Shown here: piece by piece, positions 1 to 53,495 of the stretch
Numbering within the stretch: position 1 is the stretch's first letter
Layout: each line of letters begins with the position of its first letter
Source of the DNA: Verrucomicrobiota bacterium
GTDB lineage: Bacteria > Verrucomicrobiota > Verrucomicrobiia > Opitutales > Seribacteraceae
Reading direction: 5' to 3'
DNA length: 64,000 bases
NCBI GenBank assembly: GCA_027622665.1
Contig: JAQBYT010000001.1
Span: 1-64,000 of the forward strand
Position numbers and translations under genes: made by a program
The notes under the pieces: model-generated
What the model was told of the DNA's origin: nothing
The model's database searches: none
The model's input: only the letters and a program-made list of their open reading frames with translations

Positions 1-76
1 ATACATCTGGAAATACGTCTCAACGTAACTCAGCATTCAGCCCTCAGCATTCATCATTCGCCAAAGGCGCGAAGTT
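1..76 (+). repeat. Partial copy of heptamer-arm mini-unit (3' arm plus CGCC-AAA-GGCG hairpin)
   Basis: 1-54 matches 4906-4959 with one mismatch; 55-76 resembles 4811-4832 (cattcgcc[a/g]aaggcgc[g/t]aagtt). Confidence 0.9.
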
Positions 77-442
77 ATGAGTGCTGAATTGAAGATTGTT
101 GAGCGTAGCTTTGAGTTTGCGGTGGGCGTAGTTCGGCTTTGCCGTTTTTTGGACGAGCAAGACCGATCTAGTCGAACCCTGGCTTCGCAACTTTTACGTT
201 CGGGGACATCGATCGGGGCTAATATCGAAGAAGCTCAGGCCGGACAGAGCAAAGCCGACTTCACTGCAAAAATGTCGATCGCCCGAAAGGAAGCACGTGA
301 AACGCTTTACTGGCTCAGACTGATCAAGGCCGCTGATAGGGTTGAGGTCAGCAAACTAGATGATATCACGAGGGAAGCGGACGAATTAGTCCGCATTCTG
401 ACTGCAATAGTCAAAACTTCGCAGCTTGGGAAAAATTCATAA
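77..442 (+). CDS. Four helix bundle protein (TIGR02436 / 23S rRNA IVS protein / Avd-like family)
   Basis: 121 aa; family motifs QLLRSGTSIGANIEEA, S.ADF..K..IA.KEA.ET.YWL. Confidence 0.92.
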   Translation: MSAELKIVERSFEFAVGVVRLCRFLDEQDRSSRTLASQLLRSGTSIGANIEEAQAGQSKADFTAKMSIARKEARETLYWLRLIKAADRVEVSKLDDITREADELVRILTAIVKTSQLGKNS

Positions 443-445
443 TTC

Positions 446-1000
446 ATGACTCAGCACTCAAAATTCAGCGCAGCTGCCTTGGAACAGGCGATTATCGAGC
501 TGCTAGGCCAAGAAGGCTACCCCTACGTCAAAGGCGACACGATCACAAGAGAGCCAGGGCAAGTTTTGCTGCATGCCGACCTGCGGGCCTTTCTGGCCAA
601 GCGGTATTCGGCAGACAAGATCACGTCGCAGGAAATCGAGGCGGTCATCAAGCAGCTCGAAGCCTACTCGGCAGCCGATCTCTACGAGAGCAACAAGGCG
701 ATCATGAAGCTGGTCTCGGATGGCTTTCTGCTGAAGCGGGAAGACCGCAGCCAGAAGGATCTGTATGTCCAGTTGATCGATTACTCGGAGCTGGTGGCGT
801 TTCGGGAACCAAACCCCGGCGAAGTGCCGACCATCGTGGCGGAGGACCAAGCCGTCTATGGCGGCAGCCGAAACCTTTTCAAGATCGTCAATCAGCTGGA
901 GATTGTCGGCCACGAGAAGCGCATTCGCGACACCCTCCTCCCGAAACTCATCTCCGGCGAACTCCGCGTCCTCGAGGGCGAACAACTTACCAAGGCCTGA
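446..1000 (+). pseudogene. Truncated HsdR N-terminus (446-925) fused in frame to an HsdS-like C-terminal tail (926-1000)
   Basis: First ~160 aa nearly identical to N-terminus of 6377..9607; then RDTLLPKLISGELRV, the typical HsdS C-terminal motif. Confidence 0.85.
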
Positions 1001-1060
1001 TAAGGACAGAGTCCTGTCTCGACTAAATCCCATTCAGCACCTATCCTATTCACGAAACTT

Positions 1061-2023
1061 ATGCCGACTGCCGACCAACTCAAATCACTGATCCGCTCTC
1101 ATTTCGACGAAGATGATGAGCTCTTTCACACTTTGGCTCTGCAAGTCGCAGCACATGAGGCTCGTCGTGGCCATTCGACTCTGGCCCATGACATCCGTGA
1201 CCTCATCGACCAAAGAAGCAAGAAACAGTCGGAGGTCAATATCGTTCCCTTTCCTCTGGAACTTGCAGGTTTAGTCATCTCAACTCAGCCTAATGCTCAC
1301 CTTTCTCGTCTTGTACTCGCAGACACTCTTAAATCCCGGATCAAAAAGGTCATTCATGAGTTCCATCAGCGACACAAGCTACAGAAACATGGACTGACTA
1401 ACCGTCGAAAAGTCCTTCTTTCCGGCCCTCCGGGCACAGGGAAAACACTCACCAGTCACATCCTTGCGGGCGAATTAAAGCTCCCTCTCCACGTCATTCA
1501 GGTGGACAAACTGGTCACCCGCTTCATGGGTGAAACAAGTGCCAAGTTGAGACAAATTTTTGATCTGATTCGCAGCGAAACAGGCGTTTACCTTTTCGAC
1601 GAATTTGATGCCATCGGTGGAGATCGCTCGCGTGATAACGATGTGGGAGAAATGCGTCGCGTGCTGAACGCCCTGCTACAATTTATTGAACAGGACAGCT
1701 CCGAAAGTCTCATTATTGCGGCTACTAATAATTCAGAACTTTTGGACCGGGCCTTGTTCCGTCGCTTCGATGATGTGCTGCGGTATAATTTCCCAAACGA
1801 GGAAGAGAGAAAGAGTCTCATCACCAATGTTCTCGGGCCATTTAATCAGCTAAAAGGCTGGAAAGGCGTCTTGAAGGCCTGTGACTCTCTTAGTCATGCT
1901 GAAATCGATCATGCGTGCCGAGATGCCATGAAAGAAGCCATTCTCTCCAACAAGAATCAGGTTACGGCAAAGGATTTAGTCAAAGCCTTCGATGAGCGCC
2001 ACAAGACTCATGACCGCATCTAA
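1061..2023 (+). CDS. AAA+ ATPase (IetA-like)
   Basis: Walker A GPPGTGKT, Walker B LFDEFD, AATN..LLDRALFRRFD; directly upstream of an S8 peptidase. Confidence 0.88.
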   Translation: MPTADQLKSLIRSHFDEDDELFHTLALQVAAHEARRGHSTLAHDIRDLIDQRSKKQSEVNIVPFPLELAGLVISTQPNAHLSRLVLADTLKSRIKKVIHEFHQRHKLQKHGLTNRRKVLLSGPPGTGKTLTSHILAGELKLPLHVIQVDKLVTRFMGETSAKLRQIFDLIRSETGVYLFDEFDAIGGDRSRDNDVGEMRRVLNALLQFIEQDSSESLIIAATNNSELLDRALFRRFDDVLRYNFPNEEERKSLITNVLGPFNQLKGWKGVLKACDSLSHAEIDHACRDAMKEAILSNKNQVTAKDLVKAFDERHKTHDRI

Positions 2024-2029
2024 ATCCTC

Positions 2030-4531
2030 ATGCCGCCGCAAACATCACGCCACCCCCACCTTTTTCTTCCCGGACCTTCAACCACACGGGATGACTATAC
2101 TAGTCCGCGACAGGGCGGTGGAGGTGCCACGTTAAAGCAACAACATCGAGAGTCTCACGCAGGGGCAATCATTCAAGGATTGGAGAAAGCAGAGGCGGAA
2201 ACATTACAAAGAAAGGCCACTGCGCAATCAACTCGTGAAGGCACTTATATCGAATTCTCAAGCGAACCTGGGTTTGACCTCGTTCTTAAAAGTCTCGAAT
2301 CCCAACAAGCGGGAATCAGACTCCTAAACGTAAGGACCACGGGGAGCGACTCTGACGCAATCACACGTGCTACAGTATTTGTTCCTCAGGATAAGAACGC
2401 TTACTTTTTGGACAAAGCGAAGGTCTATCTTGCAGAAGATAACCCGCCAAAACCTGATGGCACATCGACGCCTAAGAACGGGCCTTTGATTGAGAGCATC
2501 GCGGAAGTAAAAGCTGCTATTCTTCAAAGGTCCTTTTGGAACGACGAACTGGATTTACTTCCTTCTGAATCTCCAAAATGGATCGAAGCTTGGATCAGTA
2601 GTGAAGACGTTGAGGACATTGCTCACTTCAAAGAACTTTGTGAGACACAGAGAATTATTGTAGGAGAAGGCCAGTGTCATTTCCCTGAAAGAACTGTTCT
2701 TCTCCTTCAGGCAAATCGTATTCAACTGGAGTCCCTCATTGAGCACTCGGCACTCATTGCTGAATTTCGCTCAGCCAGAGAGGTCGCGACCTTCTTCATC
2801 GAGCAGAATAATACTGACCAGACCTCCTGGGCCAATCATCTCCTTGATCGAACGAGCTTCGATCAATCTAAAGATATTAGCGTGCTGGTTCTCGATCACG
2901 GCGTAAATAATGGGCACATGCTCTTGGAGCCATTGCTGGCTGACGATGATTGCCATGCAAACAATCCGGAATGGGGAACTCAAGACGATCACGGGCACGG
3001 GACACTCATGGCAGGAACAGCTGCCTATGGAGACATTCAGGAAAAACTAGAGCAGCACAATCCCCTGATCATTGAGCATATTCTGGAATCTTCTAAAATT
3101 CTCCCTCCCCCTCCTGAAGTAAACCCGCGCAGGCTCTGGGGCTATCAGACAGCGGAAGGTATCTACCGGGCAGAGATCCAAGCTCCACAGCGGAAACGGA
3201 TTATCTGTATGGCTATCACTAGCAAGGAAGGATTGAAGCAAGGTCGGCCTTCCTCCTGGTCTGGCCAAATTGATAGGCTTGCCGCCGGAGTCGAAGATGA
3301 GCGCCAGCGACTCATCATTCTGAGCGCAGGAAACGTTGATGATCCGGAAGAATGGAAAAACTATCCCGATGCAAACCTAACAGCTCAGGTGCAAGACCCC
3401 GCTCAGGCCTGGAATGCTCTCACTGTCGGCGCATACACCACAAAGACCCGCATTTCAGACCCGTTCTTAAACGGCTATTCGCCGGTAGCAGACTCAGGCG
3501 GGCTTTCTCCCTTTTCTTCAAGCTCACTTACGTGGCCGGAGAGAAAATGGCCGATCAAACCAGAGATTCTTTTTGAAGGAGGGAATGTTGCAAAAAACTC
3601 TTCAAATGCCGTCTTCCCCACTGACGACCTCGCCCTTCTCTCGACATATCACCTCCCTGGCGAATCACTTTTTTCAGCATTTAATGCTACCAGTATCGCC
3701 TCTGCACAGGCCGCTCACATGGCAGCACAACTTCAAGCTGTCTACTCAGACTCTTGGCCTGAGACGATCCGTGGACTGATGGTGCATTCTGCAAACTGGA
3801 CTGAGACTCAAATAAGAAACCACCTCTCGGGAAGAACCAAAGCGGATTACCAAAGACTCGCCAGAGTCTGTGGCTACGGAGTGCCCAATCTACAGACGGC
3901 TATCTCTTGCGGTCAAAACTCTCTTTCTCTGATTGCTGAGGCTGAAATTCAGCCATTCACAAAACACGCTACGGATAGCAGAGGCATCACCAAAGACATG
4001 CACATCTACAGCCTTCCTTGGCCTGAAACAGAGCTGCTCGACCTCGGTGAGCTCGAGATCCAGATGAGAGTCACGCTCTCCTATTTCATCGAACCAAGCC
4101 CAGGAGAAATCGGTTGGCAAGACCGCTATCGCTACGCTTCACATGCCCTTCGCTTCGAATTAAACGGCCCTGGAGAAAATCAGGACCGCTTCATTCAGCG
4201 CATCAATAGGAAAGCCCGTGATGATGATCAGCATCCAGGAAGTGAAGGTGCGGGAAGCCACTGGACTCTCGGTGAGTCGCGCAATGTTGGGTCAATTCAT
4301 TCTGATATCTGGACAGGCACGGCAGCTCAGTTAGCCGCGTCAAACTTGATCGCTGTGCATCCAGCGGTCGGTTGGTGGAAGGAACGCAGGCATTTAGGAA
4401 ATCTAGAAAAATCCACACGCTATTCGCTCATTATCTCATTCACACTCCCTAGCCAAGAGATCGACATTTATACCCCAATCGCCCAACAGCTAGGAATCAA
4501 GACACCTATCGAGGTCTCGATTCCAACGTAG
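2030..4531 (+). CDS. S8 family serine peptidase (IetS-like)
   Basis: Subtilase triad VLDHG, HGTLMAG, ATSIA; SAGN oxyanion motif; no signal peptide; C-terminal P..GWWK.R. Confidence 0.88.
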   Translation: MPPQTSRHPHLFLPGPSTTRDDYTSPRQGGGGATLKQQHRESHAGAIIQGLEKAEAETLQRKATAQSTREGTYIEFSSEPGFDLVLKSLESQQAGIRLLNVRTTGSDSDAITRATVFVPQDKNAYFLDKAKVYLAEDNPPKPDGTSTPKNGPLIESIAEVKAAILQRSFWNDELDLLPSESPKWIEAWISSEDVEDIAHFKELCETQRIIVGEGQCHFPERTVLLLQANRIQLESLIEHSALIAEFRSAREVATFFIEQNNTDQTSWANHLLDRTSFDQSKDISVLVLDHGVNNGHMLLEPLLADDDCHANNPEWGTQDDHGHGTLMAGTAAYGDIQEKLEQHNPLIIEHILESSKILPPPPEVNPRRLWGYQTAEGIYRAEIQAPQRKRIICMAITSKEGLKQGRPSSWSGQIDRLAAGVEDERQRLIILSAGNVDDPEEWKNYPDANLTAQVQDPAQAWNALTVGAYTTKTRISDPFLNGYSPVADSGGLSPFSSSSLTWPERKWPIKPEILFEGGNVAKNSSNAVFPTDDLALLSTYHLPGESLFSAFNATSIASAQAAHMAAQLQAVYSDSWPETIRGLMVHSANWTETQIRNHLSGRTKADYQRLARVCGYGVPNLQTAISCGQNSLSLIAEAEIQPFTKHATDSRGITKDMHIYSLPWPETELLDLGELEIQMRVTLSYFIEPSPGEIGWQDRYRYASHALRFELNGPGENQDRFIQRINRKARDDDQHPGSEGAGSHWTLGESRNVGSIHSDIWTGTAAQLAASNLIAVHPAVGWWKERRHLGNLEKSTRYSLIISFTLPSQEIDIYTPIAQQLGIKTPIEVSIPT

Positions 4532-4560
4532 AGATTCAGAGAAGAAATCTTATGACTACT

Positions 4561-4581
4561 AAATTCGGAAATCCCGAATTT
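4561..4581. terminator. 8-bp inverted repeat after S8 peptidase (possible terminator or operator)
   Basis: AAATTCGG-aaatc-CCGAATTT. Confidence 0.35.
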
Positions 4582-4631
4582 GCTTCAGAACCAAGGATTC
4601 CCTCATCAATAAGATTATCTAACTAAGCACG

Positions 4632-4971
4632 ATGAAATTCACCGAAGCCCAACTCGAAGCAAACGCCCCACTGGGGCGAAGGATGAAGGATGAATTATGA
4701 GTGATGAACAGCTGCTTTGCAGAATGATGAAGGATAAATTATGAATGATAAATTAAATATCATCGAAAATGCGTCTGAACGGACCTCAGCATTCAGCCCT
4801 CAGCATTCATCATTCGCCGAAGGCGCTAAGTTCACCGAAGCCCAACTCGAAGCAAACGCCCCACTGGGGCGAATGATGAAGGATGAATTATGAGTGTTGA
4901 ATTAGATACATCTGGAAATACGTCTCAACGCAACTCAGCATTCAGCCCTCAGCATTCATAACTCATAATTC
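4632..4971 (+). repeat. Two tandem gene-less heptamer-arm units, each preceded by a copy of an hsdR-like 5' end and a CGCCCCA-C-TGGGGCG palindrome
   Basis: 4638-4708 is repeated at 4831-4901 (2 mismatches); 5' arms ggcgaa(g/t)gatgaaggatgaattatgagtg, 3' arms ctcagcattcagccctcagcattcat. Confidence 0.9.
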
Positions 4972-4980
4972 TAACAGCTT

Positions 4981-6000
4981 ATGCCCAACGAACTCATTTT
5001 CTACAAAACCCCGGACGGCGAGCAACGGATTGAAGTCGTCTATGAGGACGAGAACTTCTGGATGTCGCAACGGGCGCTGGCAGAGCTATTCTCGGTTCAG
5101 GTTCCCGCGATCAGCAAGCACCTGAAAAACATCTTCGAATCTGGAGAATTGGCCGAAGAACAGGTTGTTTCCATTTTGGAAACAACCACTCAACACGGAG
5201 CCATTGCGGGGAAAACCCAATCTCAGAAGACTAAATTCTACAGCCTCGATGCCATCATCGCCGTCGGCTACCGAGTGAATAGCTACCAAGCTACTCAGTT
5301 TCGCATCTGGGCAACGAAGACCTTGAAGGAGTTTGTGATCAAGGGCTTCGTGATGGACGATGAGCGTCTCAAACAGGGCAAACAGTTTGGTCAGGATTAT
5401 TTCGATGAGTTGTTGGAGCGCATTCGTGAGATCCGTGCCAGCGAGCGCCGTTTCTACCAAAAAATCACCGACATCTACGCCCTCTCGACCGACTACGACA
5501 AGAATGCTCCCGTCACCCGAGAATTCTTTGTCTCCGTGCAGAATAAGCTCCACTGGGCGATCACCGGTAAGACCGCTGCCGAGACGATCCACGAGCTGGC
5601 CGATTCTGAGAAGCCTCACATGGGACTCGCGACATGGAAAGACGGCCCCAAAGGTAAAGTATTGAAGTCGGATGTATCCGTCGCAAAAAATTATCTTAAC
5701 GAGGCTCACGTGAAGGAGCTGAATCGCATCGTCTCCGCCTACCTCGACTTGGCCGAGAATCGAGCCGAACGGCTGATCACGATGAACATGGCGGACTGGG
5801 TCGTATTTTTAAACAATTTCCTAGAGCTATCGAGCTACCCGATCCTGGATGATAAAGGCAAAGTGAGCGCCTTGGAAGCCAAGCTTAAAGCAGAAGCCGT
5901 GTATGAGCAATTCCGGCAAGAGCAAGATCGGGAATACGTTTCCGATTTCGACCGTGAGATCAAACGCCTTAGCGGATCTAAAGATCCGAATGATGAATGA
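4981..6000 (+). CDS. rhuM: Virulence RhuM family DNA-binding protein
   Basis: Motifs YSLDAIIAVGYRVNS..ATQFRIWAT, DYFDELLERIREIRASERRFYQK, VQNKLHWAITG.TAAE. Confidence 0.9.
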   Translation: MPNELIFYKTPDGEQRIEVVYEDENFWMSQRALAELFSVQVPAISKHLKNIFESGELAEEQVVSILETTTQHGAIAGKTQSQKTKFYSLDAIIAVGYRVNSYQATQFRIWATKTLKEFVIKGFVMDDERLKQGKQFGQDYFDELLERIREIRASERRFYQKITDIYALSTDYDKNAPVTREFFVSVQNKLHWAITGKTAAETIHELADSEKPHMGLATWKDGPKGKVLKSDVSVAKNYLNEAHVKELNRIVSAYLDLAENRAERLITMNMADWVVFLNNFLELSSYPILDDKGKVSALEAKLKAEAVYEQFRQEQDREYVSDFDREIKRLSGSKDPNDE

Positions 6001-6006
6001 TAAATT

Positions 6007-6373
6007 ATGAGTGATGAATTAACTATTGTTGAGCGTAGTTTTGAGTTTGCTGTGCGTGTTATCCGCCTGTGCCGTTTTTTTGGACGATCAGGATCGTTCG
6101 ACTCGAACACTGGCTTCTCAACTGTTGCGTTCGGGAACATCTGTCGGAGCGAATATCGAAGAAGCTCAAGCTGGACAGAGCAAAGCGGACTTCACTGCTA
6201 AAATGTCAATTGCTAGAAAGGAAGCTCGAGAAACGCTTTATTGGCTCAATCTACTCAAAGCTGCTGAGATCGTCGAAGCCGAAAAACTAAACGATATAAC
6301 GAGAGAAGCAGATGAGTTGGTTCGTATTATAACCTCGATCGTCAAAACTTCACAACTCGGGAAAAATTCATAA
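6007..6373 (+). pseudogene. Four helix bundle protein, second copy, +1 frameshift in T7 run
   Basis: MSDELTIVERSFEFAV (frame of 6007) continues as FLDDQDRS..QLLRSGTSVGANIEEA (frame of 6026); T7 at 6075-6081 versus T6 in intact copy 77..442. Confidence 0.88.
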
Positions 6374-6376
6374 CTC

Positions 6377-9300
6377 ATGACTCAGCATTCAAAATTCAGC
6401 GAAGCTGCCTTGGAACAGGCGATTATCGAGCTGCTAGGCCAAGAAGGCTACCCCTACGTCAAAGGCGACACGATCACAAGAGAGCCAGGGCAAGTTTTGC
6501 TGCATGCCGACCTGCGGGCCTTTCTGGCCAAGCAATACGCGGCGGACCATATCACGCCGCAAGAAATCGAGGCGGTGATCAAGCAGCTTGAAGCCTACTC
6601 GGCGGCTGATCTCTACGAGAGCAACAAGGCGGTCATGAAGTTGGTCTCGGATGGCTTTCTGCTGAAGCGGGAGGACCGCAGCCAGAAGGATTTGTATATC
6701 CAGTTGATCGATTACTCGGAGCTTGTGGGGTTTAGGGAACCGAATCCCGGCGAAGTGCCGACCATCGTGGCGGAGGATGCTGGCGTCTATGGCAGCAGCC
6801 GAAACATTTTCAAGATGGTCAACCAGTTGGAGATCACTGGTGGAGAGAAGCGGATTCCGGACGGGATCCTCTATGTCAACGGGTTGCCCTTGGTGGTGTT
6901 TGAGTTCAAGAGCGCAATCCGCGAGGTGGCGACGATTCACGATGCCTTTGTGCAACTGACGGTGCGCTACCGGCGGGATATCCCGGAGTTGTTCAAGTAC
7001 AATGCGTTTTGCGTGATTTCGGACGGGGTGAACAACAAGGTGGGCTCGTTCTTCGCCCCCTACGAGTTCTACTATGCTTGGCGCAAGATCGATGGGGCGG
7101 ACTTGGTGGAGGCGGAGGGGATTGATTCGCTCTACACGATGGTGAAGGGTTTGTTCGACCCGACGCGCCTGCTGGACGTGATCCGCAACTTCGTCTACCT
7201 GCCCGACGTTTCGCGCGCCGAACAGAAGATTCTCTGCCGCTATCCGCAGTATTATGCAGCGAAGAAATTGTTCGATAGCGTGCTGGCTCACCGCAAGCCG
7301 GTGGGAGATGGCAAGGGAGGAACCTATTTCGGGGCCACGGGGTGCGGGAAGAGTTTTACCATGCTCTTTCTCGCCCGTCTGCTGATGCGCAGCGTGGAGC
7401 TGGCCAGCCCGACGATCGTATTGATTACCGACCGGACGGATCTGGATGACCAGCTCTCCGGCTTGTTCACCAACGGGAAGGGCTATCTGGGGGACGAGTC
7501 GGTGATCAGCGTGGAGAGCCGGGAGCATTTGCGCGATTTGCTGAAGGGAAGAAATAGTGGAGGAGTCTTCCTGACCACGATCCACAAGTTCACCGAGGAT
7601 ACGGAGCTCCTGACCGAACGTACCAACGTGATCTGCATATCCGATGAGGCCCACCGCAGCCAGGTAAACCTCGAACAGAAACTGAGAGTGACCGAGGAGG
7701 GAGTGAAGAAAACTTACGGGTTCGCCAAGTACCTGCACGATTCCCTGCCCAACGCGACTTACGTGGGCTTCACGGGGACACCGATCGACGCGACACTGGA
7801 TGTCTTCGGCGAGGTGGTGGATGCCTACACCATGACGGAGTCGGTGGCGGACGAGATTACGGTGCGCATCGTATACGAGGGGCGGGCGGCGAAGGTGATG
7901 CTGGACAATAGCAAGCTCAAGGAGATCGAGGACTACTACGGCCGGTGCGCGAATGAGGGAGCGAGCGAGCACGCGATCGAGGAGAGCAAGAAGGCCACGA
8001 CGAACATGGGCGCCATCCTGGGCGACCCGGACCGGATCCAAGCCTTGGCCGAGGATTTCGTGAAACACTACGAGAAGCGCGTCAACGAGGGGTCGACTGT
8101 GGCAGGCAAGGCGATGTTCGTGAGCAGTAGCCGGACGGTGGCCTACGATTTTTACAAGGCGGTGATCGCCCTGCGTCCGGAATGGGCCGAGGTGAAGGTG
8201 TGCGCCGATGGCGTGGAACTGAGCGAGGCGGAGACCAAGACGATCAAGCCGATGGAGCGCATCAAGATGGTGATGACCCGGGGCAAGGATGACGAGGAAA
8301 CCCTTTACGATTTGCTGGGGACCAGCGAGTACCGCAAGGAGCTGGACCGGCAGTTCAAGACGGCGAAGTCGAACTTCAAGATCGCGATCCTTGTGGACAT
8401 GTGGTTGACGGGCTTCGACGTGCCTTTCCTCGACACCATCTACGTCGATAAACCGATTCAGCGACACAACCTGATCCAGACGATTTCCCGGGTGAACCGA
8501 AAGTTCGAGAACAAGCAAAAGGGGCTGGTGGTCGACTACGTGGGGATCAAGAAGCAGATGAACCAGGCGCTGGCCCAGTACTCGAAGGCGGACAGCGCCA
8601 ACATCGAGGAGATCGCCGCATCCATCACGGTGGTGAAGGATCACTTGGACTTGCTGACGAGACTTTTTTACACCTTTGATACGACCCCCTACTTCTCCGG
8701 TTCACCGGCAGACCAGTTGCAGTGCCTGAATCGTGCGGCGGAATTCGCCCTGATAACGGAGAAGGTGAAGACGCGGTTCATGTTCCTGGTGAAGCGCATG
8801 AAGGCGGCCTACGACATATGCAGCGGGAGCGATGCGTTCACCGAAGAGGAGCGCGATCACATCCACTTCTACCTGGCCGTGCGTTCCATCGTCGCCAAGT
8901 TGACCGTCGGCCCCGCCCCCGACACCGCCCAGATGAACGCCAAGGTGCGCGACATGATCAGTGCTGCAATCCAAAGCGACGGGGTGGAGGAAATTTTCAA
9001 GCTCGGGGAGGACGACGCAACCGAGATCGACATCTTCGAGGGCGACTACTTGTCGAAGATCGAGAAGATCAAGCTGCCCAATACGAAGATCAAGCTGCTC
9101 CAGCAATTGCTGAAGAGAGCGATCACCGACTTCAAGAAGGTGAACAGGATAAAGGGAGTCGACTTCTCCAAGAAATTTCAGACCTTGGTCGAGAAATACA
9201 ATGAGCGGGACGAGCAGGACGTGCTGCGCAGCAATGTGCTCGAGGACTTTACCGATGAGATCATCGACTTGTTCCAAGCCCTGAAGGTGGAGAAGGATTC

Positions 9301-9607
9301 CTTTAATGAGCTGGGCATCGATATCGAGGAGAAGGCATTCTACGACATCCTGAAGTCGCTCGCGATCAAGTATGACTTCGATTATCCCGAGGACAAGCTT
9401 CTGGAGTTGGCCAAAAAGGTGAAGACCGAAGTCGACGACAAGGCGAAGTACACCGACTGGAGCCAACGCGAGGACATCAAGGCGGAATTGAAGGTCAGCC
9501 TGATCATCTTACTCGCCAATAACGACTACCCACCCGTGGATCGAGACGAAGTGTATAAGGAAATCTTCGAGCAGGCCCAGAACTTCAAGAAGCACCGCGG
9601 GGCCTAG
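6377..9607 (+). CDS. hsdR: Type I restriction endonuclease subunit R
   Basis: 1076 aa; nuclease motif IPDG..YVNGLPLVVFEFK, Walker A GATGCGKS, DEAH box, FTGTP, MWLTGFD, QTISRVNR. Confidence 0.96.
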   Translation: MTQHSKFSEAALEQAIIELLGQEGYPYVKGDTITREPGQVLLHADLRAFLAKQYAADHITPQEIEAVIKQLEAYSAADLYESNKAVMKLVSDGFLLKREDRSQKDLYIQLIDYSELVGFREPNPGEVPTIVAEDAGVYGSSRNIFKMVNQLEITGGEKRIPDGILYVNGLPLVVFEFKSAIREVATIHDAFVQLTVRYRRDIPELFKYNAFCVISDGVNNKVGSFFAPYEFYYAWRKIDGADLVEAEGIDSLYTMVKGLFDPTRLLDVIRNFVYLPDVSRAEQKILCRYPQYYAAKKLFDSVLAHRKPVGDGKGGTYFGATGCGKSFTMLFLARLLMRSVELASPTIVLITDRTDLDDQLSGLFTNGKGYLGDESVISVESREHLRDLLKGRNSGGVFLTTIHKFTEDTELLTERTNVICISDEAHRSQVNLEQKLRVTEEGVKKTYGFAKYLHDSLPNATYVGFTGTPIDATLDVFGEVVDAYTMTESVADEITVRIVYEGRAAKVMLDNSKLKEIEDYYGRCANEGASEHAIEESKKATTNMGAILGDPDRIQALAEDFVKHYEKRVNEGSTVAGKAMFVSSSRTVAYDFYKAVIALRPEWAEVKVCADGVELSEAETKTIKPMERIKMVMTRGKDDEETLYDLLGTSEYRKELDRQFKTAKSNFKIAILVDMWLTGFDVPFLDTIYVDKPIQRHNLIQTISRVNRKFENKQKGLVVDYVGIKKQMNQALAQYSKADSANIEEIAASITVVKDHLDLLTRLFYTFDTTPYFSGSPADQLQCLNRAAEFALITEKVKTRFMFLVKRMKAAYDICSGSDAFTEEERDHIHFYLAVRSIVAKLTVGPAPDTAQMNAKVRDMISAAIQSDGVEEIFKLGEDDATEIDIFEGDYLSKIEKIKLPNTKIKLLQQLLKRAITDFKKVNRIKGVDFSKKFQTLVEKYNERDEQDVLRSNVLEDFTDEIIDLFQALKVEKDSFNELGIDIEEKAFYDILKSLAIKYDFDYPEDKLLELAKKVKTEVDDKAKYTDWSQREDIKAELKVSLIILLANNDYPPVDRDEVYKEIFEQAQNFKKHRGA

Positions 9608-9733
9608 GCATTGCCTGCCGAGAGCCACACATAGGATCCCAGAAAATCACAGCCTGCCTTTGGCATGGCACCCATGTGGGGCGCGCCCTTCCCACCCGGC
9701 GGTGCGGAACCTGCGGAGACCCTCTAACACAGA

Positions 9734-11065
9734 TCAGGGCTTCCGCCAGGGAATCTTGCCGGCTTTTTGGAGGTGATCCATGAGGGCTCGGGAAAGCTCG
9801 TTGGCGACTTTGCCGTTGGGTGGCTTGGGGTTTGCCTCCGCCGGGTCGCTGGAAAGATTGAAGAGTTGCATGGGCTCGAAGCCGGTGTTTTGCAGGAGCT
9901 TCCATGGGCCGCGCCGGATGGCGTAGTAGGCCCGCCCCTGGTATCGGCGGTTACCCTCGCGGCGGACCCAGATAAGAGTGCGGTTCGGATCGCCCTTGGC
10001 GGCCTTGAGCCAGATCGGGGCTAGGCTTACGCCATCGATCTCGTGCTCCACCTTCACGCCGGCGATTTCGCAGAAGGTGGGGAGAAGGTCCATGGTCATG
10101 CCGAGCTCGTTGCTGCGACCGGGCTTGATGGTTCCGGGCCAGACGGCGCAGGTGGGGACGCGAATGCCGCCTTCCCAATGATCCTGCTTGCCTCCGCGAA
10201 GCTCTCCGTTAAGGGCTCCGTGCGGGATGGAGCCTCCGTTGTCGGAGGAAAAGACGATGAGGGTGTCGTCGGCGATGCCCAGCTCCTTTACGGCATCGAG
10301 GAACTTGCCGATCTCGTGGTCCATGTGCTCGACGAAGGCAACGTTGGTGGCACGTTTTTTGTTGAGCTTGGGCTCCCGCTTTTGCACTTTTTCCAGCCAA
10401 TCCTTGGGCGGCTGGATGGGAAAGTGAGGGGCGTTGTATGCGAGGTAGAGAAAGAAGGGTTTCTTTTTGTCGGCGGCCTGTTCCTTTACGTATTCGATGC
10501 CCCAGCGGGTAAAAACCTCGGTGGCGTGGCCCTTGGGTTTTACCTCCTCCTTGTTGCGACGCATCCAGTTGACGCCGCCGCGCAGGTGGGTCCAGTAGTC
10601 GTCCATCATATCGGCGAGGAAGCCATGAAAGAAATCGAAGCCGCGATCGTTGGGCACGTTGGGCGACTCGTAGCCGAGGTGCCACTTGCCTACCATGCCG
10701 GCATGGTAACCTGCCTTGCGCATGAGATCGGGCATGGTGGGACCAGAAGGGTTGAAGTAGCCCCAACTATCCTTCTCCCACTGGCGAATAACGCCGGGTG
10801 CGCCGACCATGTCGGGATAGCGCCCGGTGAGGAGGGAGGCCCGGGTGGGGGTGCACACGGTGCAGTTAGCGTAGAACTGATCCATGCGCAGGCCCGCTTT
10901 CATGAGGCTGTCTATGGCGGGCGTGCGAATATCCGTACCACCGAAGGAGGAGAGGTCGCTGTATCCAAGATCATCAACGAGGATGCAGATGACGTTCGGC
11001 TTTTTGGCCGCTACGGACAAAGCCAGGGAAAAAAGAAGGCAGAGAAGATAGAGGTTGCGTTTCAT
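9734..11065 (-). CDS. Sulfatase (arylsulfatase-like, exported)
   Basis: Signal peptide, KPN..ILVDDLG, CTPTR formylglycine motif, GKWHLG, SDNG. Confidence 0.93.
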   Translation of the reverse strand: MKRNLYLLCLLFSLALSVAAKKPNVICILVDDLGYSDLSSFGGTDIRTPAIDSLMKAGLRMDQFYANCTVCTPTRASLLTGRYPDMVGAPGVIRQWEKDSWGYFNPSGPTMPDLMRKAGYHAGMVGKWHLGYESPNVPNDRGFDFFHGFLADMMDDYWTHLRGGVNWMRRNKEEVKPKGHATEVFTRWGIEYVKEQAADKKKPFFLYLAYNAPHFPIQPPKDWLEKVQKREPKLNKKRATNVAFVEHMDHEIGKFLDAVKELGIADDTLIVFSSDNGGSIPHGALNGELRGGKQDHWEGGIRVPTCAVWPGTIKPGRSNELGMTMDLLPTFCEIAGVKVEHEIDGVSLAPIWLKAAKGDPNRTLIWVRREGNRRYQGRAYYAIRRGPWKLLQNTGFEPMQLFNLSSDPAEANPKPPNGKVANELSRALMDHLQKAGKIPWRKP

Positions 11066-18700: not shown

Positions 18701-21700
18701 ATGCAATTCATGTCTTTCTTGAAGGAAAAGATTACCCTGCCACCCACACGCCGTGAAAAGGATGGGCGTAGTGGCTTTGCGTTAATCCTATGCCTAGCCC
18801 TGCTGTCCGTAGTGTTTTTGTTTGTGTTGAGCATGATGTCTCTGGTGTCCTTGGAGCTACGACAGTCACAGCTTCGCGAGAAAACAGTACTGGCCAAAAC
18901 GCATGCTCGTTTTGGATTAAGCGTGGCATGCGGGCAATTAAACAAGCATTTGGGACCTGATCAAAAAATTTCAGCGGCGGCCGCGTTATTAGAAGGATCT
19001 ATGGCTTATCCTTCGGAACTCGGTGGGCGCAAGTATTGGACGGGCGTTTGGGATACGAAGGACAAGACAACTCCGCCCGTATGGTTGGTTTCGGAAGAAG
19101 ACGCCGATCCTTTCGACTCGGGGTCCCTGCCTCTTGATTCCAAAGAGCGAGTAGAGCTGGTGGGAGCAACAGGAGGCACTTCATCCGATGCAGACGAGAT
19201 TTTGGTGAAGAAAGTCGGATTGGATCTTATTTCGAACACTAATCCGAGCAGCTCAAGAGATCCAATTGGAAGTCCCAAAAGTTCAGGTTCGTACGCTTAC
19301 TGGGTGGGCGACGAAGGTCTCAAGGCAAAAATCAGCATGCCTCGGACCGAAGACGCCCTTGTCTCAACGGGTTTTGGTGTTTCAATCATCCCCGGGTTTG
19401 AGGGTTTCGAATCGAAGATTCCAGCCCAAATACGCTCTAGATTACTGAACGAGGCTTCCGTTGCAAACGCAACGAAGGCAGTCAACGAAGATACTTTGCA
19501 TGCTCGATTTCACGATGTAACCGTACACGGACACGGCGTGCTGGCAAATGTCCGAGGGGGAGGCTTGCGGCGAGACCTAACGGCTGGGTTGCAACCCGAG
19601 TCAAAGAATTCCGAAGGGGAGCTCGTGCTTACCGGCGACGAACAAATTTTCGGCCCGGTGGGCGGTACTGAACCGTCTAGCGCCGTCGGCTATATTCCCC
19701 GCGAAGGTTTTCCCGAATTGCAGGGTTATGAAATTGACATGGGAAGCCGCGTGGGTCGTTTGCCCTTCAATCCGACCAGTGCTTCGCCTCAAAACTCGCG
19801 TCGGGTAGAGTTGAGAGAATCGACCGCTGAATTCTACGCTATCGATTTCGAAGATGCCGGAGATTTCGATTGGGACGTACGCATTGAAGCCGAGCGGATG
19901 GGCGACGGCAACATTCGTCTCTCCTTGTACCATCCGAGTTATACCTGCTATGCAGCTACTGTTTACAACGATAGAGGTCAGGCGGTTCAGGGCTTGATCA
20001 ACTGCAACCATAAGCGTGATTCAAGTGACCGTCGCGTGGTCACCCTGCAAGGTGGCCCGGGCAACAGTACTGAGAATGTAACAATCGACCCGGGAGGTCC
20101 TTTGTGGGATCAATTAAGGGACTACTATAACTTGCGCGCCTCGGGCAAAGCCATGTCTCCGCGAGTTCAGATGGAAGACAAGGTGGGGATTCATCCGGTA
20201 ATATCTCGTGCACAGTTCTTTCTTTATCCTACCTACGAGAGGGAGCCTTCGGGCAAGTTTCGCATCCACTCCCACATTTTGCCTGCCGTGGTACTTTGGA
20301 ACCCCCACAATGTGGATATTGCGCCCTCCAAGTATACCGTGGCGCTCTGGAATCGGGAGCAAAACGGTTTTGGAGACAAATACCGCATCTATTACAACGA
20401 CCGGAATGTTTGCGAAAGTAACTACTTTCTTTGGTATCCCCGTAAATCCGGAGGACCCGACGGCGAAATCCTGGATCAAGGGAGAGCAAAAGTGGACATT
20501 AAGGGCAAAAACCCCGAAGCCGGATATCCTAATGCCACTTGGCCCTACATCGACTTGGAAAACGAAATTGCCATTGATCTTGTTGGTCCCTGTCGAAACG
20601 GGAAAATCTGGACCATTCTCGAGACTGTACCAGGTGAAACCTACGAGGTGCGATTCCCATATGGCATAAACGAAGATGATCGCCCAAAACCCTATGTTCG
20701 TAGGGGCATTGTATCTTGGGATGGAACCGACATGGCCACCTTCGAGGGCAATACTGAGCTTTTCACTTATGGTACTCCGCAGGATTACGTAAGTTTCAGC
20801 GCAGTGGCCACTACAGATCAAACCAAACTTGAGTTCCGTAGCGATACACACACTAAAGCGGATGGCGGAAGCGGTGGCTCCACCTGCCAAGGCGTAGTCA
20901 TCGGCATCTGCACGGTAAAGTCCAGTTCCGGTTATCCTGCTTCGGTGAAGGTCCCGACGAAATATAGCGGATTAATGGGCAAAAAAATTGGTTTCGTGAT
21001 CGACAATGCTTCCGGATTGAAGGCGGGCGAGGCACTTGTCTTTACTCCCTCCGCCGAAGGGGAATACACGGGATACAGCATCGGGGAAGCCCCTGGGAAT
21101 GTTCTGAGTGAGGGTTGGCACGGTGGTCACACCTTCTGGAAACCAACGGACAAGACCTTGGATAGTGACGCAAAGCCCACACACGGCGAAGTTCTTCTGG
21201 ATCAAAACGATACCTATGTTGCACTCTTCAAGGGTGCCGTCGATACTGATGCCAGTCTCCTTCCCGATGGCAGCACACCGAATGATCCGTTGGTGGTTTT
21301 GTCTATGGGGCGATTCCTAGACGAAGGATTGGAACCCGAGCAATTCCAGCTGCTTTCCCGTAAGTCCAGCGACCGCTATAGTTCAAGTGAATTGGCCGGA
21401 TCCGTCGGTCGTCGGTTCGTCATGCGATATGCCGCGGAAGAGGACCAATCGTCGAGTGGAGGACGCATACGCTGGTTGGCCAACTATAATCCACGAGCCT
21501 CCCTCCTGTCACCTACGCCATATGAATTTTCCGAAAGCGCGGAGCATCCCTTGACGGGTTCCCTTCAGACAATCCCGAACTATCGCACCAAAAAGGCACG
21601 GGTTTCCGACGACGAGTGGGAGGTGCCGGTCTCCGGTTCGGCTTCGCACGATAGTCCATTTATCGCCTACTCGCACCAATCAGGAGTGACTCAAGGTGCC

Positions 21701-23092
21701 CTGTTCGAAATTCCCAAGGGCTATGACCACGAGCATTTTCGCTCTCTTGCGCAATTTTCACACGTCGATTTTTCCACGAAGACTCATCGACTGATTCGTG
21801 AGTACCTGACATTTGACAACAGTTCTTTCTATGAAAAATACGCTATGCGTGGACTGGGTCACAAACCCAGTTATGCCATCGGCAACTCGCTGGCCGACCC
21901 CCGCATTCCTCTGGACGCTCCTTATACAAACCTAAGTGACAATATCTGGACTGCTACCGAGTCTCGCCTTGATGCGGGTTACCACTATGACCATTCCTAC
22001 CTGCTCAACGAGGCCCTTTGGGACAGCTATTTCCTCTCCACTGTACCCCGCAGCGTGACTTCCCGACAGATGGAAGAAGTCGACTTCGCCTTGGCCAATA
22101 ATCGATTGAAACTCCGACGGAATCCACGGCTCCTGTGGCGGCAGGCTCGCGAACTTGTCGAAGCCGGCCTTCCTGCGCCACAAGCCTACATGGCGATTCG
22201 CGATCGAAGCGACGATGACTTGAAGTCCTACGACTTGGCGTCGTCGATGCTTCTGCTGGACGGAGCCTTCAACGTCAACTCTACCTCGGTCCATGCATGG
22301 TCGGCGTTGCTCGGCTCATTCTTCGGAGCCAAGGTCAAAGGTAAAGACGGAGTCCAACCCGGAGATGAATACGAATCGCCCTTCTTAAGGATCAACGAAC
22401 CGCTCGGCTCCGCGATCAAGGATGGAGACAACGTGAATTCCGCCTCCGAAGAAGCTTATTTGGGATACCGCTCACTCAGCCAATCAGAAATCCGGGACCT
22501 AGCCACTGAAATTGTGGTTCAAGTCAAGCAACGCGGGCCTTTTCGATCCCTTGCCGAATTCATTAACCGCACCTTGCCGGAAGGTGCTTCCTCGGCATCA
22601 TCCGACTGGGAAAGCGATGCCCTTCAAGGCGCCCTCGCCGCCGCCATTGAGTCCGCTGGCATCAACGAAGACTTTCGCGTCGAAATGATTGAGGCGAAGA
22701 AGAATCGAAACTTCGACTTGGAACTTAAAGCGACTAAAAAACCAGGCGGTTCTACAGCCGCCGCGGGTCCTGCCGCATCGAATGCACCCGGATTTCTCAC
22801 ACAAGCCGACCTACTGTCTCGTCTGGGCCCATGTCTTTCGGTCCGATCCGACACTTTCCGCGTACGCGTTTACGGCGAAGCCATGGCAACTTTGGGAGCG
22901 AATAGAGATGGAGACGAGAGCCACTTCCGTGGCGAGGCCATTTTCCAACGACTTCCCGACGTCGTGGAACAATACGAAGTACCTTCCAAATCTTCCGATT
23001 CTCCTGATTCTCCCGAGAAAGAGGATTGGAACGGCCTCCACAGAACGTTTGCACTCATCGGCTTTCGTTGGTTGCGAGACAACGAGATTTGA
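18701..23092 (+). CDS. Large PilX/GspK-like protein of verrucomicrobial type with inserted extracellular domains
   Basis: GFALILCL prepilin-like N-terminus, GQL.K.LGPDQ, YWVGDEG.KA, AFNVNSTS..AW, RGPF.SLAEFINR, TQADLL..LGP..SVRSDTF. Confidence 0.72.
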   Translation: MQFMSFLKEKITLPPTRREKDGRSGFALILCLALLSVVFLFVLSMMSLVSLELRQSQLREKTVLAKTHARFGLSVACGQLNKHLGPDQKISAAAALLEGSMAYPSELGGRKYWTGVWDTKDKTTPPVWLVSEEDADPFDSGSLPLDSKERVELVGATGGTSSDADEILVKKVGLDLISNTNPSSSRDPIGSPKSSGSYAYWVGDEGLKAKISMPRTEDALVSTGFGVSIIPGFEGFESKIPAQIRSRLLNEASVANATKAVNEDTLHARFHDVTVHGHGVLANVRGGGLRRDLTAGLQPESKNSEGELVLTGDEQIFGPVGGTEPSSAVGYIPREGFPELQGYEIDMGSRVGRLPFNPTSASPQNSRRVELRESTAEFYAIDFEDAGDFDWDVRIEAERMGDGNIRLSLYHPSYTCYAATVYNDRGQAVQGLINCNHKRDSSDRRVVTLQGGPGNSTENVTIDPGGPLWDQLRDYYNLRASGKAMSPRVQMEDKVGIHPVISRAQFFLYPTYEREPSGKFRIHSHILPAVVLWNPHNVDIAPSKYTVALWNREQNGFGDKYRIYYNDRNVCESNYFLWYPRKSGGPDGEILDQGRAKVDIKGKNPEAGYPNATWPYIDLENEIAIDLVGPCRNGKIWTILETVPGETYEVRFPYGINEDDRPKPYVRRGIVSWDGTDMATFEGNTELFTYGTPQDYVSFSAVATTDQTKLEFRSDTHTKADGGSGGSTCQGVVIGICTVKSSSGYPASVKVPTKYSGLMGKKIGFVIDNASGLKAGEALVFTPSAEGEYTGYSIGEAPGNVLSEGWHGGHTFWKPTDKTLDSDAKPTHGEVLLDQNDTYVALFKGAVDTDASLLPDGSTPNDPLVVLSMGRFLDEGLEPEQFQLLSRKSSDRYSSSELAGSVGRRFVMRYAAEEDQSSSGGRIRWLANYNPRASLLSPTPYEFSESAEHPLTGSLQTIPNYRTKKARVSDDEWEVPVSGSASHDSPFIAYSHQSGVTQGALFEIPKGYDHEHFRSLAQFSHVDFSTKTHRLIREYLTFDNSSFYEKYAMRGLGHKPSYAIGNSLADPRIPLDAPYTNLSDNIWTATESRLDAGYHYDHSYLLNEALWDSYFLSTVPRSVTSRQMEEVDFALANNRLKLRRNPRLLWRQARELVEAGLPAPQAYMAIRDRSDDDLKSYDLASSMLLLDGAFNVNSTSVHAWSALLGSFFGAKVKGKDGVQPGDEYESPFLRINEPLGSAIKDGDNVNSASEEAYLGYRSLSQSEIRDLATEIVVQVKQRGPFRSLAEFINRTLPEGASSASSDWESDALQGALAAAIESAGINEDFRVEMIEAKKNRNFDLELKATKKPGGSTAAAGPAASNAPGFLTQADLLSRLGPCLSVRSDTFRVRVYGEAMATLGANRDGDESHFRGEAIFQRLPDVVEQYEVPSKSSDSPDSPEKEDWNGLHRTFALIGFRWLRDNEI

Positions 23093-23148: not shown

Positions 23149-23520
23149 ATGAAAAAACTCCATCCATCCCGGTTCGTTCTATTCCTTGTCGCGTTGGCTC
23201 TTGTACCTCTTTTCCAAGGCCAAGTTAGTGACCAACAGAGAAAGCAACTGCGTGAACTGCTTCGCTACCAGAGAGCATACAACGAACAGTTGGACCAAGC
23301 CCGTAAGCAACTCCTCGAAAAAGACGAGGAACTCCAACTCGTCTACTCTGAGATGATCGATGCAGAGAGAGTTTATCTCGAGGTCACCAAACAGTACGAA
23401 ACTCTCCTTGAAAAAAAGCTGAAAGCCAATCCACAGGTGAAGGACATCCAGACCAAACTTGGCAAAATCAATGAGCAGATCCGAAGTGTCGGAACAACTC
23501 CAAAGAGCCCGCGGCGTTGA
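23149..23520 (+). CDS. Exported coiled-coil hypothetical protein
   Basis: Signal peptide followed by Q/E/K/L-rich helical sequence. Confidence 0.7.
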   Translation: MKKLHPSRFVLFLVALALVPLFQGQVSDQQRKQLRELLRYQRAYNEQLDQARKQLLEKDEELQLVYSEMIDAERVYLEVTKQYETLLEKKLKANPQVKDIQTKLGKINEQIRSVGTTPKSPRR

Positions 23521-24260
23521 TGCGTCTCTCTCGTTTCTTGTTTGTAGTCATTGCCTGCGCCGCATCGGCAAGCTCAGTCTTTGGGGAAATCGATAGAGAC
23601 AAACCGCCGGAAGTAACGGTCGACTTCCGCCTCTTGGTATGGGCTCACCCAAAAAGTCAGGCCTCGGCTGTAACGACTTCAGCTAAAACCGGAGAACCCA
23701 CCGAGGTCCGCTTCCATTCAACATTTCACTATCAGGATGGAAACATAACGAAGGAGCTTCGCTTACTCCCGGGGAAGCCATCTAAGAACGTATCCTATGC
23801 CGGTGACGCCACATTATCATTTTTCAGCAATCAGAATCTTGAGTCTCCACATGCATTTAGTATCTCTTTCGATCCGCTGTGGAAGGAGGTTCTGCTACTT
23901 CTCTATCCAAAGACTTCGTCGGAAAAGACATTCAACTGTCTCCCCGTGTTCCGTCCCATCGGTCAGCCGAGCATAGGCATTGCCGTCAACTTAACGGGAA
24001 ATCCCCTTTCGCTTTTAGTGGATGGACGCCGGCAGCGTTTATCGTCATGGAAACCGACGCCGTTTCGTTTTTCCCTCAGAAACAAGGATCACATCCGGTT
24101 TGGGGTGAATGCTCTCGATTCCGGAACGACTAAGCAGCTTCTCTCGGTCAAGAAATTCTTTGACCGTGATGACAATCCCATACTGTTACTACGCCGAGAA
24201 ACCTTTATTGATCCCAAAGGACTCATCAAGCACGGGAAGTTGTTGATGACCACCCTCTAG
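23517..24260 (+). CDS. Exported hypothetical protein
   Basis: Signal peptide; overlaps the stop of the previous gene. Confidence 0.65.
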   Translation: MMRLSRFLFVVIACAASASSVFGEIDRDKPPEVTVDFRLLVWAHPKSQASAVTTSAKTGEPTEVRFHSTFHYQDGNITKELRLLPGKPSKNVSYAGDATLSFFSNQNLESPHAFSISFDPLWKEVLLLLYPKTSSEKTFNCLPVFRPIGQPSIGIAVNLTGNPLSLLVDGRRQRLSSWKPTPFRFSLRNKDHIRFGVNALDSGTTKQLLSVKKFFDRDDNPILLLRRETFIDPKGLIKHGKLLMTTL

Positions 24261-53492: not shown

Positions 53493-53495
53493 GCC

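Follow-up and report, generated by a model that had tools for sequence, protein, structure and literature searches.

The DNA analysed here (hereafter the window) comprises the initial 64 kb of contig C55 in a Verrucomicrobiota genome of 66 contigs (G000). Between the genes rhuM and hsdR it carries a small gene for a four-helix-bundle (4HB) protein, 4HB-B, bordered on each side by a 33-nt arm of degenerate heptamers, the two arms being reverse-complementary to each other. The gene and its arms are probably a copy of a widespread gene cassette, of the same type as the open reading frame (ORF)-bearing intervening sequences (IVSs) of 23S rRNA, which was likely inserted at the DNA level at the start of hsdR and is now a frameshifted relic. 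The design of the cassette, namely a small hairpin, a purine-rich array of period 7, an ORF of the PF05635 family and a reverse-complement array, recurs around most homologues in many phyla. Since the arms hold the stop codon of the upstream gene and the start codon of the downstream one, the reading frames of the operon stay usable. As a class, the cassette is an operon-embedded variant of the ORF-bearing rRNA IVS.

Complementary heptamer arms around a frameshifted gene

When the arms at 5988-6020 and 6365-6397 are set against each other in opposite orientation, 26 of their 33 positions are complementary, with one additional G-T pair. Their ungapped score of 19 was reached by none of 2000 dinucleotide shuffles of both junction zones, and the energy of the RNA duplex that they can form (-23.1 kcal/mol, against a shuffled mean of -8.5) by none of 1000 shuffles. 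Tandem Repeats Finder (TRF) reports a period of 7 in both arms, with 4.6 copies of GAATGAT upstream and 2.4 copies downstream. Located in the 5' arm are the TGA that ends rhuM (5998-6000), another stop, TAA (6001-6003), and the ATG with which the 4HB gene starts (6007); the 3' arm comprises the TAA that ends the 4HB gene (6371-6373) and the ATG of hsdR (6377). The original prediction, made from the letters of the DNA alone, had described degenerate heptamer arrays that are complementary to exactly this extent and hold the stop and start codons of the neighbouring genes; the shuffles, the TRF periods on both sides, and the sequence with its ORF list agree with it on each of these points.

The gene enclosed by the arms is split over two overlapping frames, 6007-6201 (frame 1, 64 aa) and 6026-6373 (frame 2, 115 aa). 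Residues 1-24 are encoded in frame 1 and the remainder in frame 2, with the shift at a run of seven T (6075-6081) that counts six T in the intact paralogue 4HB-A, located near the start of the contig. The PF05635 match of 4HB-B is confined to frame 2, from profile position 27 on, and this part scores 76.5 bits for PF05635 and 91.7 bits for TIGR02436; the corresponding values for 4HB-A are 85.6 bits (cut-off 33.8) and 102.3 bits (cut-off 24). All 12 close homologues checked are in frame, and contigs from four public metagenome runs (four studies), spanning 4901-6395 or 5613-6432, match the window without any difference and without an indel at the T run; given the seven T of 4HB-B, the frameshift is therefore real and recent. 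A programmed frameshift or phase variation at the T run was also considered but gained no support, no length variant being present in the contigs of the four runs, a kind of data in which rare variants are dropped. Over 122 codons, with 4HB-B read as two pieces, the two paralogues show 47 synonymous and 16 non-synonymous differences, the 4HB protein having been under purifying selection until recently. The 4HB-B copy is thus a recently frameshifted relic in a decaying restriction-modification (R-M) locus. The predicted enclosure of a 4HB gene by the arms stands as regards the protein family (TIGR02436/PF05635), but the frameshift in the ORF had been missed.

An AlphaFold2 model of 4HB-A, built on a 45-sequence alignment, has a mean predicted local distance difference test (pLDDT) score of 92.7 and comprises four helices (residues 3-26, 30-55, 59-85, and 91-120). 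In a Foldseek search with this model the top match was 2rld, with a template modelling (TM) score of 0.83-0.92, followed by 2gsc/XCC0516 (TM 0.77-0.82) and then by Avd (4dwl, TM 0.71-0.79; for 4dwl/8ub7 taken together TM is about 0.7-0.8 at 14% identity). The deposited entries 2rld and 2gsc have five chains each. Both the family and its structural likeness to Avd had been foreseen, and they hold by profile scores and by Foldseek, respectively. The PF05635/TIGR02436 family is, to our knowledge, very large, and no function has been assigned to it. A likeness of PF05635 to Avd has been described (PMC10053308), and ORFs of the 23S_rRNA_IVP type are present in rRNA insertions of Candidate Phyla Radiation bacteria (bioRxiv 10.1101/2024.02.27.582315), according to the accessible parts of these two sources.

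Recurrence of the design and sites with and without the cassette

The flanks of the gene were compared among 81 homologue loci. The search for relatives gave the best 80 of 367, which share 46-88% identity and belong to many phyla, the closest among these 80 being Verrucomicrobiales metagenome-assembled genomes. Three of the 80 homologous ORFs contain an internal stop (L035, L036, and L053) and were excluded from the protein alignment. When the zones -70..+10 and -10..+70 were scored for inverted complementarity, a score of at least 13 was found in 61 of the 81 loci, against 2 of 400 ORFs of the same genome (at least 250 aa) and 2 of 174 neighbour ORFs of these loci; in direct orientation, only 9 of 81 loci exceeded the 99th percentile of shuffles. 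The autocorrelation at lag 7 was 0.44 upstream and 0.45 downstream against 0.26 in controls, and 7 was the best lag in 50/81 upstream and 62/81 downstream zones. Furthermore, a period of 7 was detected by TRF upstream in 63/82 zones and downstream in 72/82, with 54/82 having it on the two sides at once. The arrays have a median length of 4.4 units (interquartile range 4.0-5.05 upstream and 3.3-4.7 downstream; range 2 to 22.7). The complementarity and the 7-nt period expected in the flanks of homologues are therefore found again in these 61 loci, and the proposal of a recurring arm-gene-arm unit that is placed at gene junctions and provides stop and start codons for its neighbours is supported.

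The layout is constant, with purine-rich tandem repeats before the start codon (69/81 loci purine-rich on the 5' side) and their reverse complement after the stop codon, and the repeat unit varies by locus (GAATGAT, GGGTGAA, AAAAGGC, GTAGCGA, TTTTGAG, and others). Stops in all three frames occur in 37 of the 81 zones on the 5' side vs. 5 of 81 on the 3' side. Outside the GAATGAT type, the two arms are matched in unit type within a locus: the pairing score is 16.0 within loci vs. 9.6 between loci, and it is higher within in 58 of 63. The downstream neighbour is hsdR in 20 of 79 loci and hsdS in 5 of 79, the others being defence-type genes as well as housekeeping genes (ATP synthase, MoaC, Thi4, AcrB). 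In L017 (2241-3242) and L042 (2045-3283) proteins with cytidine-deaminase domains (dCMP_cyt_deam_1, Inv-AAD) are encoded directly downstream of the cassette, as further defence-type cargo at the same junction of related R-M loci.

These counts also bear on the reading that there is no element at all and that the complementarity is a by-product of a low-complexity junction rich in stops and starts (ATGA/TCAT) within a tightly coupled operon. Both arms do overlap coding ends, and TCATGA is self-complementary; nevertheless, this reading is highly improbable, considering the shuffles (0/2000 and 0/1000), the 2/400 and 2/174 real gene junctions that reach the score, and the presence of the same design, with quite different units, in fully non-coding flanks.

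The junctions have further features in common. In L015-L019, L037, L038, and L042 a new start is provided by the 3' arm (MTQHS..., MSNNSSFSTQHS...) and continues into hsdR from the second hsdR codon onward, KF(T/S)EA. A short remnant of the 5' end of hsdR (MKFTEAQLE...) precedes the cassette in 5 of the 80 loci, and it is also found twice in the window and once in genome G048. In 11 of the 36 loci with this heptamer word type, a small perfect hairpin (stem of at least 5, loop of 3-6) ends at the first heptamer word, vs. 6 of 980 control sites from the same genome, and its stems differ (CGAACC, CGCCCC, CGCAC, CGGATC, CGCAG). In the window, it is from the boundary hairpin together with the 5' arm that rhuM takes its C-terminus and its stop codon.

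Junctions with and without the cassette were found in related genomes, in line with what had been asked of empty sites. The hsdM gene of the same genome and R-M system, whose 3' end opens contig C49 on the minus strand (L014, G000:C49:1-330), has 62 extra nucleotides in comparison with the hsdM of the congeneric G006, and these constitute a gene-less heptamer hairpin, which, between YHAWRSASA and YADIAGYCKS, introduces a TAA stop and shifts the reading frame. Just past the hsdM stop, a further arm forms the end of this contig. In a sister genus, g3, the cassette lies between PSD1-type and DUF1501-type genes: it is complete in G034:C80, G026:C25, and G020:C25, the plus arm and the ORF are absent from G028, G024, G036, and the paralogous junction G034:C100, and G016 has a 178-nt internal deletion. 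Each of both junction paralogue types occurs in both states, the inserted stretch runs from directly after the upstream stop codon to the 4HB stop, and the sites without the gene still have the pyrimidine array. In G048, whose rhuM is 77% identical, rhuM is followed by hsdR without a 4HB gene; hsdR starts MKFTEAQLESAIIELL (MKFTEAQLE), the junction retains an arm-like stretch, and a module composed of hsdR-5' remnant, hairpin, and plus arm is located upstream of rhuM. Compared with G048, the C-terminus of rhuM and the start of hsdR diverge from where the hairpin and the arm begin. The hsdR of G048 (L004, about 3000-3750, G048:C121) is apparently interrupted by GC-rich repeats, with runs of SPLGRSG and PSPLPKG in several frames, which look like another kind of small inserted repeat.

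A search of the genome with the arms, allowing up to 9 substitutions (ten seeds and three 33-mers were used for dispersal), found at least 10 copies of the 33-nt module, all in C55:1-6400 and C49:1-320. Arms in plus orientation start at 4678, 4722, 4871, and 5988, and those in minus orientation are located at 27-59, 434-466, 4783-4815, 4932-4964, and 6365-6397; in addition, there is a tight hairpin at C49:248-316. The gap between the subtilase gene and rhuM (4531-4980) accommodates two gene-less hairpins and two remnants of the hsdR start (MKFTEAQLEAN...). In 4HB-A the 3' arm is complete, but of the 5' arm just the inner half is present; a further hairpin, truncated by the contig end, has its minus arm upstream of this gene, and positions 1-54 are 98% identical to 4906-4959. 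The summed depth of contigs from metagenome runs X4 and X6 climbs by a factor of 10 to 30 over arm stretches (window 4600-6100; bins 5940-6073), and arm sequences are therefore common to many other contigs in marine and estuary metagenomes.

As for how the cassette came to be there, it was probably inserted as DNA, either by recombination or with the help of a function provided in trans, its only ORF being that of the 4HB protein. The plus arm, with stops and ATG/GTG in all three frames, and the mostly stop-free minus arm could act together as a frame-independent stop/start adaptor, and the gene-less hairpins may be deletion derivatives. Several observations weigh against insertion of a mobile cassette. 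Dispersal of the arm family through the genome was not seen beyond the one locus, unlike a dispersed mobile repeat; apart from one further match with 9 mismatches on C61, the search gave nothing convincing outside it. The hsdM comparison is the only one with an empty site free of any array; the gene-less sites in g3 and G048 retain the pyrimidine array and an arm-like stretch, respectively, so that each may be a deletion product instead of a naive site. No unambiguous target-site duplication could be read from the alignments of the hsdM and g3 junctions. A hand count puts the likeness of the duplicated hsdR-5' codons next to cassettes at about 70%, so that they do not represent a fresh duplication. 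The homologues were gathered by likeness to the 4HB protein and are hence non-independent. Moreover, the layout could be accounted for without transposition if R-M loci had recombined with each other, homologously or illegitimately. Finally, as the original prediction had stated, no transposase, integrase/recombinase, or reverse transcriptase (RT) domain was found by Pfam (E<=1e-5) in window ORFs of at least 110 aa, the contig starting at window base 1 so that the upstream side is beyond view for an integrase search; in one batch, 10 of 37 ORFs were without a Pfam match. An RVT_1 protein or a Y1 transposase acting as helper was considered and rejected, the genome containing one RVT_1 match (C65) and one weak Y1_Tnp match, both with an internal stop and on other contigs.

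The arms as a possible RNA stem or as putative protein-recognition arrays

A different reading places the function of the arms in RNA. The arms would pair in the operon transcript, and the resulting stem of about 33 bp would be cut by RNase III as in the 23S rRNA IVS, or else it would occlude the 4HB and hsdR starts, so that translation of hsdR would depend on read-through of the 4HB ORF. This possibility, compatible with an origin at the DNA level, is unlikely. The arm stem does close the minimum free energy structure, its pairs have an average probability of 0.71 when the ensemble of 5960-6420 is considered, and its duplex energy is the one given above; in the register of the arms, the 4HB ATG (6007-6009) pairs with 6376-6378, overlapping the hsdR ATG; and an IVS of Coxiella with the same ORF family and heptamers is excised by RNase III at its terminal stem in vitro (PMC4990558, cited here and below for its accessible portion). 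On the other hand, the stem consists of four helices (4, 6, 8, and 7 bp) with 2x2, 5x5, and 1x1 loops between them, and the whole stretch (5980-6410, 431 nt) is not more stable than its shuffles (z -0.15). The fold requested for this stretch thus yields the arm stem in the optimal structure and in the ensemble, but no unusual stability overall. The gene-less hairpins have z values of -0.97 (4722-4815) and -1.43 (the one within 4826-4964), and single arms do not fold on their own.

The comparison of loci points in the same direction. Among the arm mismatches of the 61 loci there are 43 G·U and 58 A·C on the sense strand (p 0.16), besides 234 others, hence no wobble signature of a sense-strand RNA helix. 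In the GAATGAT family (18 loci), pairing within a locus (17.8) is about the same as across loci (16.4) and is higher in 9 of 18, which means that the arms share the unit type without base-by-base co-evolution; the covariation looked for in the arms is therefore absent from this family. With the minus arms 27-59 and 4783-4815 the 5' arm of 4HB-B reaches -25.0 kcal/mol in each case, pairing equally well or better than it does with the 3' arm of the same gene. Only half a 5' arm is present in the intact paralogue 4HB-A, and Rfam, with the rRNA families included, gave no match in 1-10000 at E<=1. The G·U and pairing results are consistent with arms that are opposite-orientation copies of one array type, and they give no positive sign of selection at the RNA level. 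The suggested folding-out of the unit from the transcript, or its processing as RNA, consequently finds no support in the mismatches, in the arms of one repeat type, which are interchangeable between loci, or in Rfam. In six RNA runs (X15-X20) just 5-9% of the sampled words were present.

The arrays could also be read as recognition sites: the approximately five heptamers on each side would be putative sites for a pentameric, ring-shaped 4HB protein that would recognize the arms of its own gene, in RNA or in DNA form, to regulate itself or to move. In agreement with this, 2rld and 2gsc were each deposited with five chains, XCC0516 is described as a homopentameric toroid (PMC4990558, citing Lin 2006), the median array has 4.4 units with the interquartile ranges reported above, the unit type varies between protein lineages and is matched on both sides, and the fold relative Avd belongs to the ribonucleoprotein of a diversity-generating retroelement (DGR) reverse transcriptase (title of entry 8ub7). 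However, the matching of unit and protein is equally expected from simple co-inheritance, the arrays range from 2 to 22.7 units, and gene-less hairpins persist without the protein nearby, which makes recognition of this kind quite unlikely. An autonomous mobile element of a new class, in which the five-part 4HB ring would read about five heptamers per end and direct insertion beside small hairpins, has a similarly slim chance. The preferred reading remains the cassette inserted at the DNA level.

Known elements and the layout of the locus

The closest known system is the ORF-bearing rRNA IVS. In Coxiella, the 23S IVS contains an S23p ORF and a 28-bp terminal stem, at which RNase III cuts in vitro, and three tandem heptamers (GACAGAT), variable in number among strains, precede the S23p start; the origin and spread of such IVSs have been unexplained since the 1990s (PMC4990558). 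The cassette resembles them in having a PF05635-family ORF in the loop of a terminal-inverted-repeat hairpin, heptamers just before the start codon, and an ORF prone to decay, the IVS being regarded as selfish (PMC4990558). It differs in that 4HB-B sits between rhuM and hsdR and not in a 23S or 16S rRNA helix, that its arms overlap the stop and start codons of the neighbours, and that its stem pairs at 26/33 positions, whereas the IVS stem of 28 bp has one mismatch and one bulge (PMC4990558). In a full-text literature search whose coverage leaves out subscription journals, the combination of heptamers, hairpin, and S23p was described for the Coxiella rRNA IVS only, as far as the accessible portions of the sources go. 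Here the design is found inside a protein-coding operon. Leptospira reportedly has another ORF-bearing 23S rRNA IVS (Ralph and McClelland in 1993).

Other elements share single features with the cassette. Like MITEs (miniature inverted-repeat transposable elements) and repetitive extragenic palindrome doublets forming hairpins (REPINs), the locus has gene-less hairpins of 62-95 nt, one of them within an hsdM whose relative lacks it; presence and absence at orthologous sites, by which MITEs are recognized, was found for hsdM (G006) and for the junction of genus g3. Unlike in MITEs and REPINs, the arms are built of heptamers in tandem, neither a cognate transposase or REP-associated tyrosine transposase (RAYT) nor a clear target duplication was found, and the copies are confined to one locus of the genome instead of dispersed. 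With integron cassettes bearing attC hairpins the likeness lies in promoter-less single-gene units, imperfect inverted repeats, tandem stacking at one operon site, and a short box recurring at unit junctions, here the hsdR-5' codons; the differences are the absence of an integrase from the window ORFs and the heptamer arrays on both sides of the gene. The Avd protein of DGRs (4dwl, 8ub7) has the same four-helix-bundle fold (TM 0.71-0.79, 14% identity), but no RT and no template or variable repeat is found near the 4HB gene, the sole RVT_1 match of the genome being the interrupted one on C65. Finally, period-7 intergenic tandem repeats occur in Xanthomonas and Nostoc genomes, with 70-75 convergent (inverted) pairs in Xanthomonas (PMC4692102); their units differ (GGGAATC), and the accessible portion of PMC4692102 makes no link to S23p/4HB genes, the terms 'S23', 'intervening', and 'four helix' occurring 0 times each.

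The coordinates of the features discussed are collected in Table 1. The locus is a type I R-M operon loaded with defence cargo and riddled with arm modules, in which hsdM and 4HB-B at least are broken.

Table 1. Genes, arms, and hairpins at the start of contig C55 (window coordinates).
Feature	Position	Strand	Remarks
Gene-less hairpin, truncated by contig start	1-59	+	loop and minus arm 27-59
4HB-A, intact paralogue, 121 aa	77-442	+	full 3' arm 434-466
hsdR N-terminal fragment fused to hsdS-like tail	446-1000	+	near-identical duplicate of 6377-6860
Junction module	4632-4710	+	hsdR-5' remnant (MKFTEAQLEAN...), hairpin CGCCCC-ACT-GGGGCG, plus-orientation arm 4678-4710
Gene-less hairpin	4722-4815	+	plus arm 4722-4754, 28-nt loop, minus arm 4783-4815
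Second hsdR-5' remnant with its own hairpin, then gene-less hairpin	4826-4964	+	gene-less hairpin: plus arm 4871-4903, 28-nt loop, minus arm 4932-4964
rhuM	4981-6000	+	PF13310, E 2.6e-109; PADLOC PDC-S05
Boundary hairpin CGGATC-TAAA-GATCCG	5973-5988	+	ends exactly at the start of the heptamer array; encodes the last RhuM residues
5' arm	5988-6020	+	4.6 units of GAATGAT (TRF)
4HB-B, frameshifted four-helix-bundle gene	6007-6373	+	PF05635/TIGR02436
3' arm, reverse-complement heptamer array	6365-6397	+	encodes MTQHS of HsdR
hsdR, type I restriction subunit	6377-9607	+	start codon and first 5 codons (MTQHS) inside the 3' arm

The fragment at 446-1000 comprises about 160 aa of HsdR, including 130 nt identical to the true hsdR start at 6377, and its fused C-terminal tail of the hsdS type (LPKLISGELRV) represents a recombination scar. 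Between this fragment and rhuM, within the type I R-M locus, lies the defence pair IetA (AAA ATPase, 1061-2023; PADLOC E 1e-74) and IetS (S8 subtilase, 2030-4531; E 1e-30). Elsewhere in the window, two pairs of PSCyt2/PSD1 and DUF1501 genes (45021-49504 and 50592-54914) have short junctions and no cassette, whereas in genus g3 the 4HB cassette is found at junctions of this type. An ORF on the minus strand (56127-57182) combines a LIM domain (E 1e-8) with a DA1-like peptidase domain (E 5e-13); these domain names are typical of eukaryotes, and the pairing is unusual for a bacterium. An ORF of 1463 aa on the plus strand (18701-23089) has no Pfam match at E<=1e-5, and neither do the next two small ORFs (23149-24257).

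If true, the autonomous mechanism based on the 4HB ring would explain the ORF-bearing rRNA IVSs and many unexplained heptamer repeats of bacteria, together with the stacking of defence genes at the hsdR start in type I restriction operons. The locus itself shows a way in which IetAS, rhuM, and small cassettes accumulate where hsdR begins while the reading frames remain unbroken, and the same arm repeats can destroy a gene, as in hsdM. If units of this kind, a gene within a heptamer hairpin, are located among ordinary genes across many phyla, at sites that occur both filled and empty, investigation of the element need no longer be tied to the essential rRNA genes.

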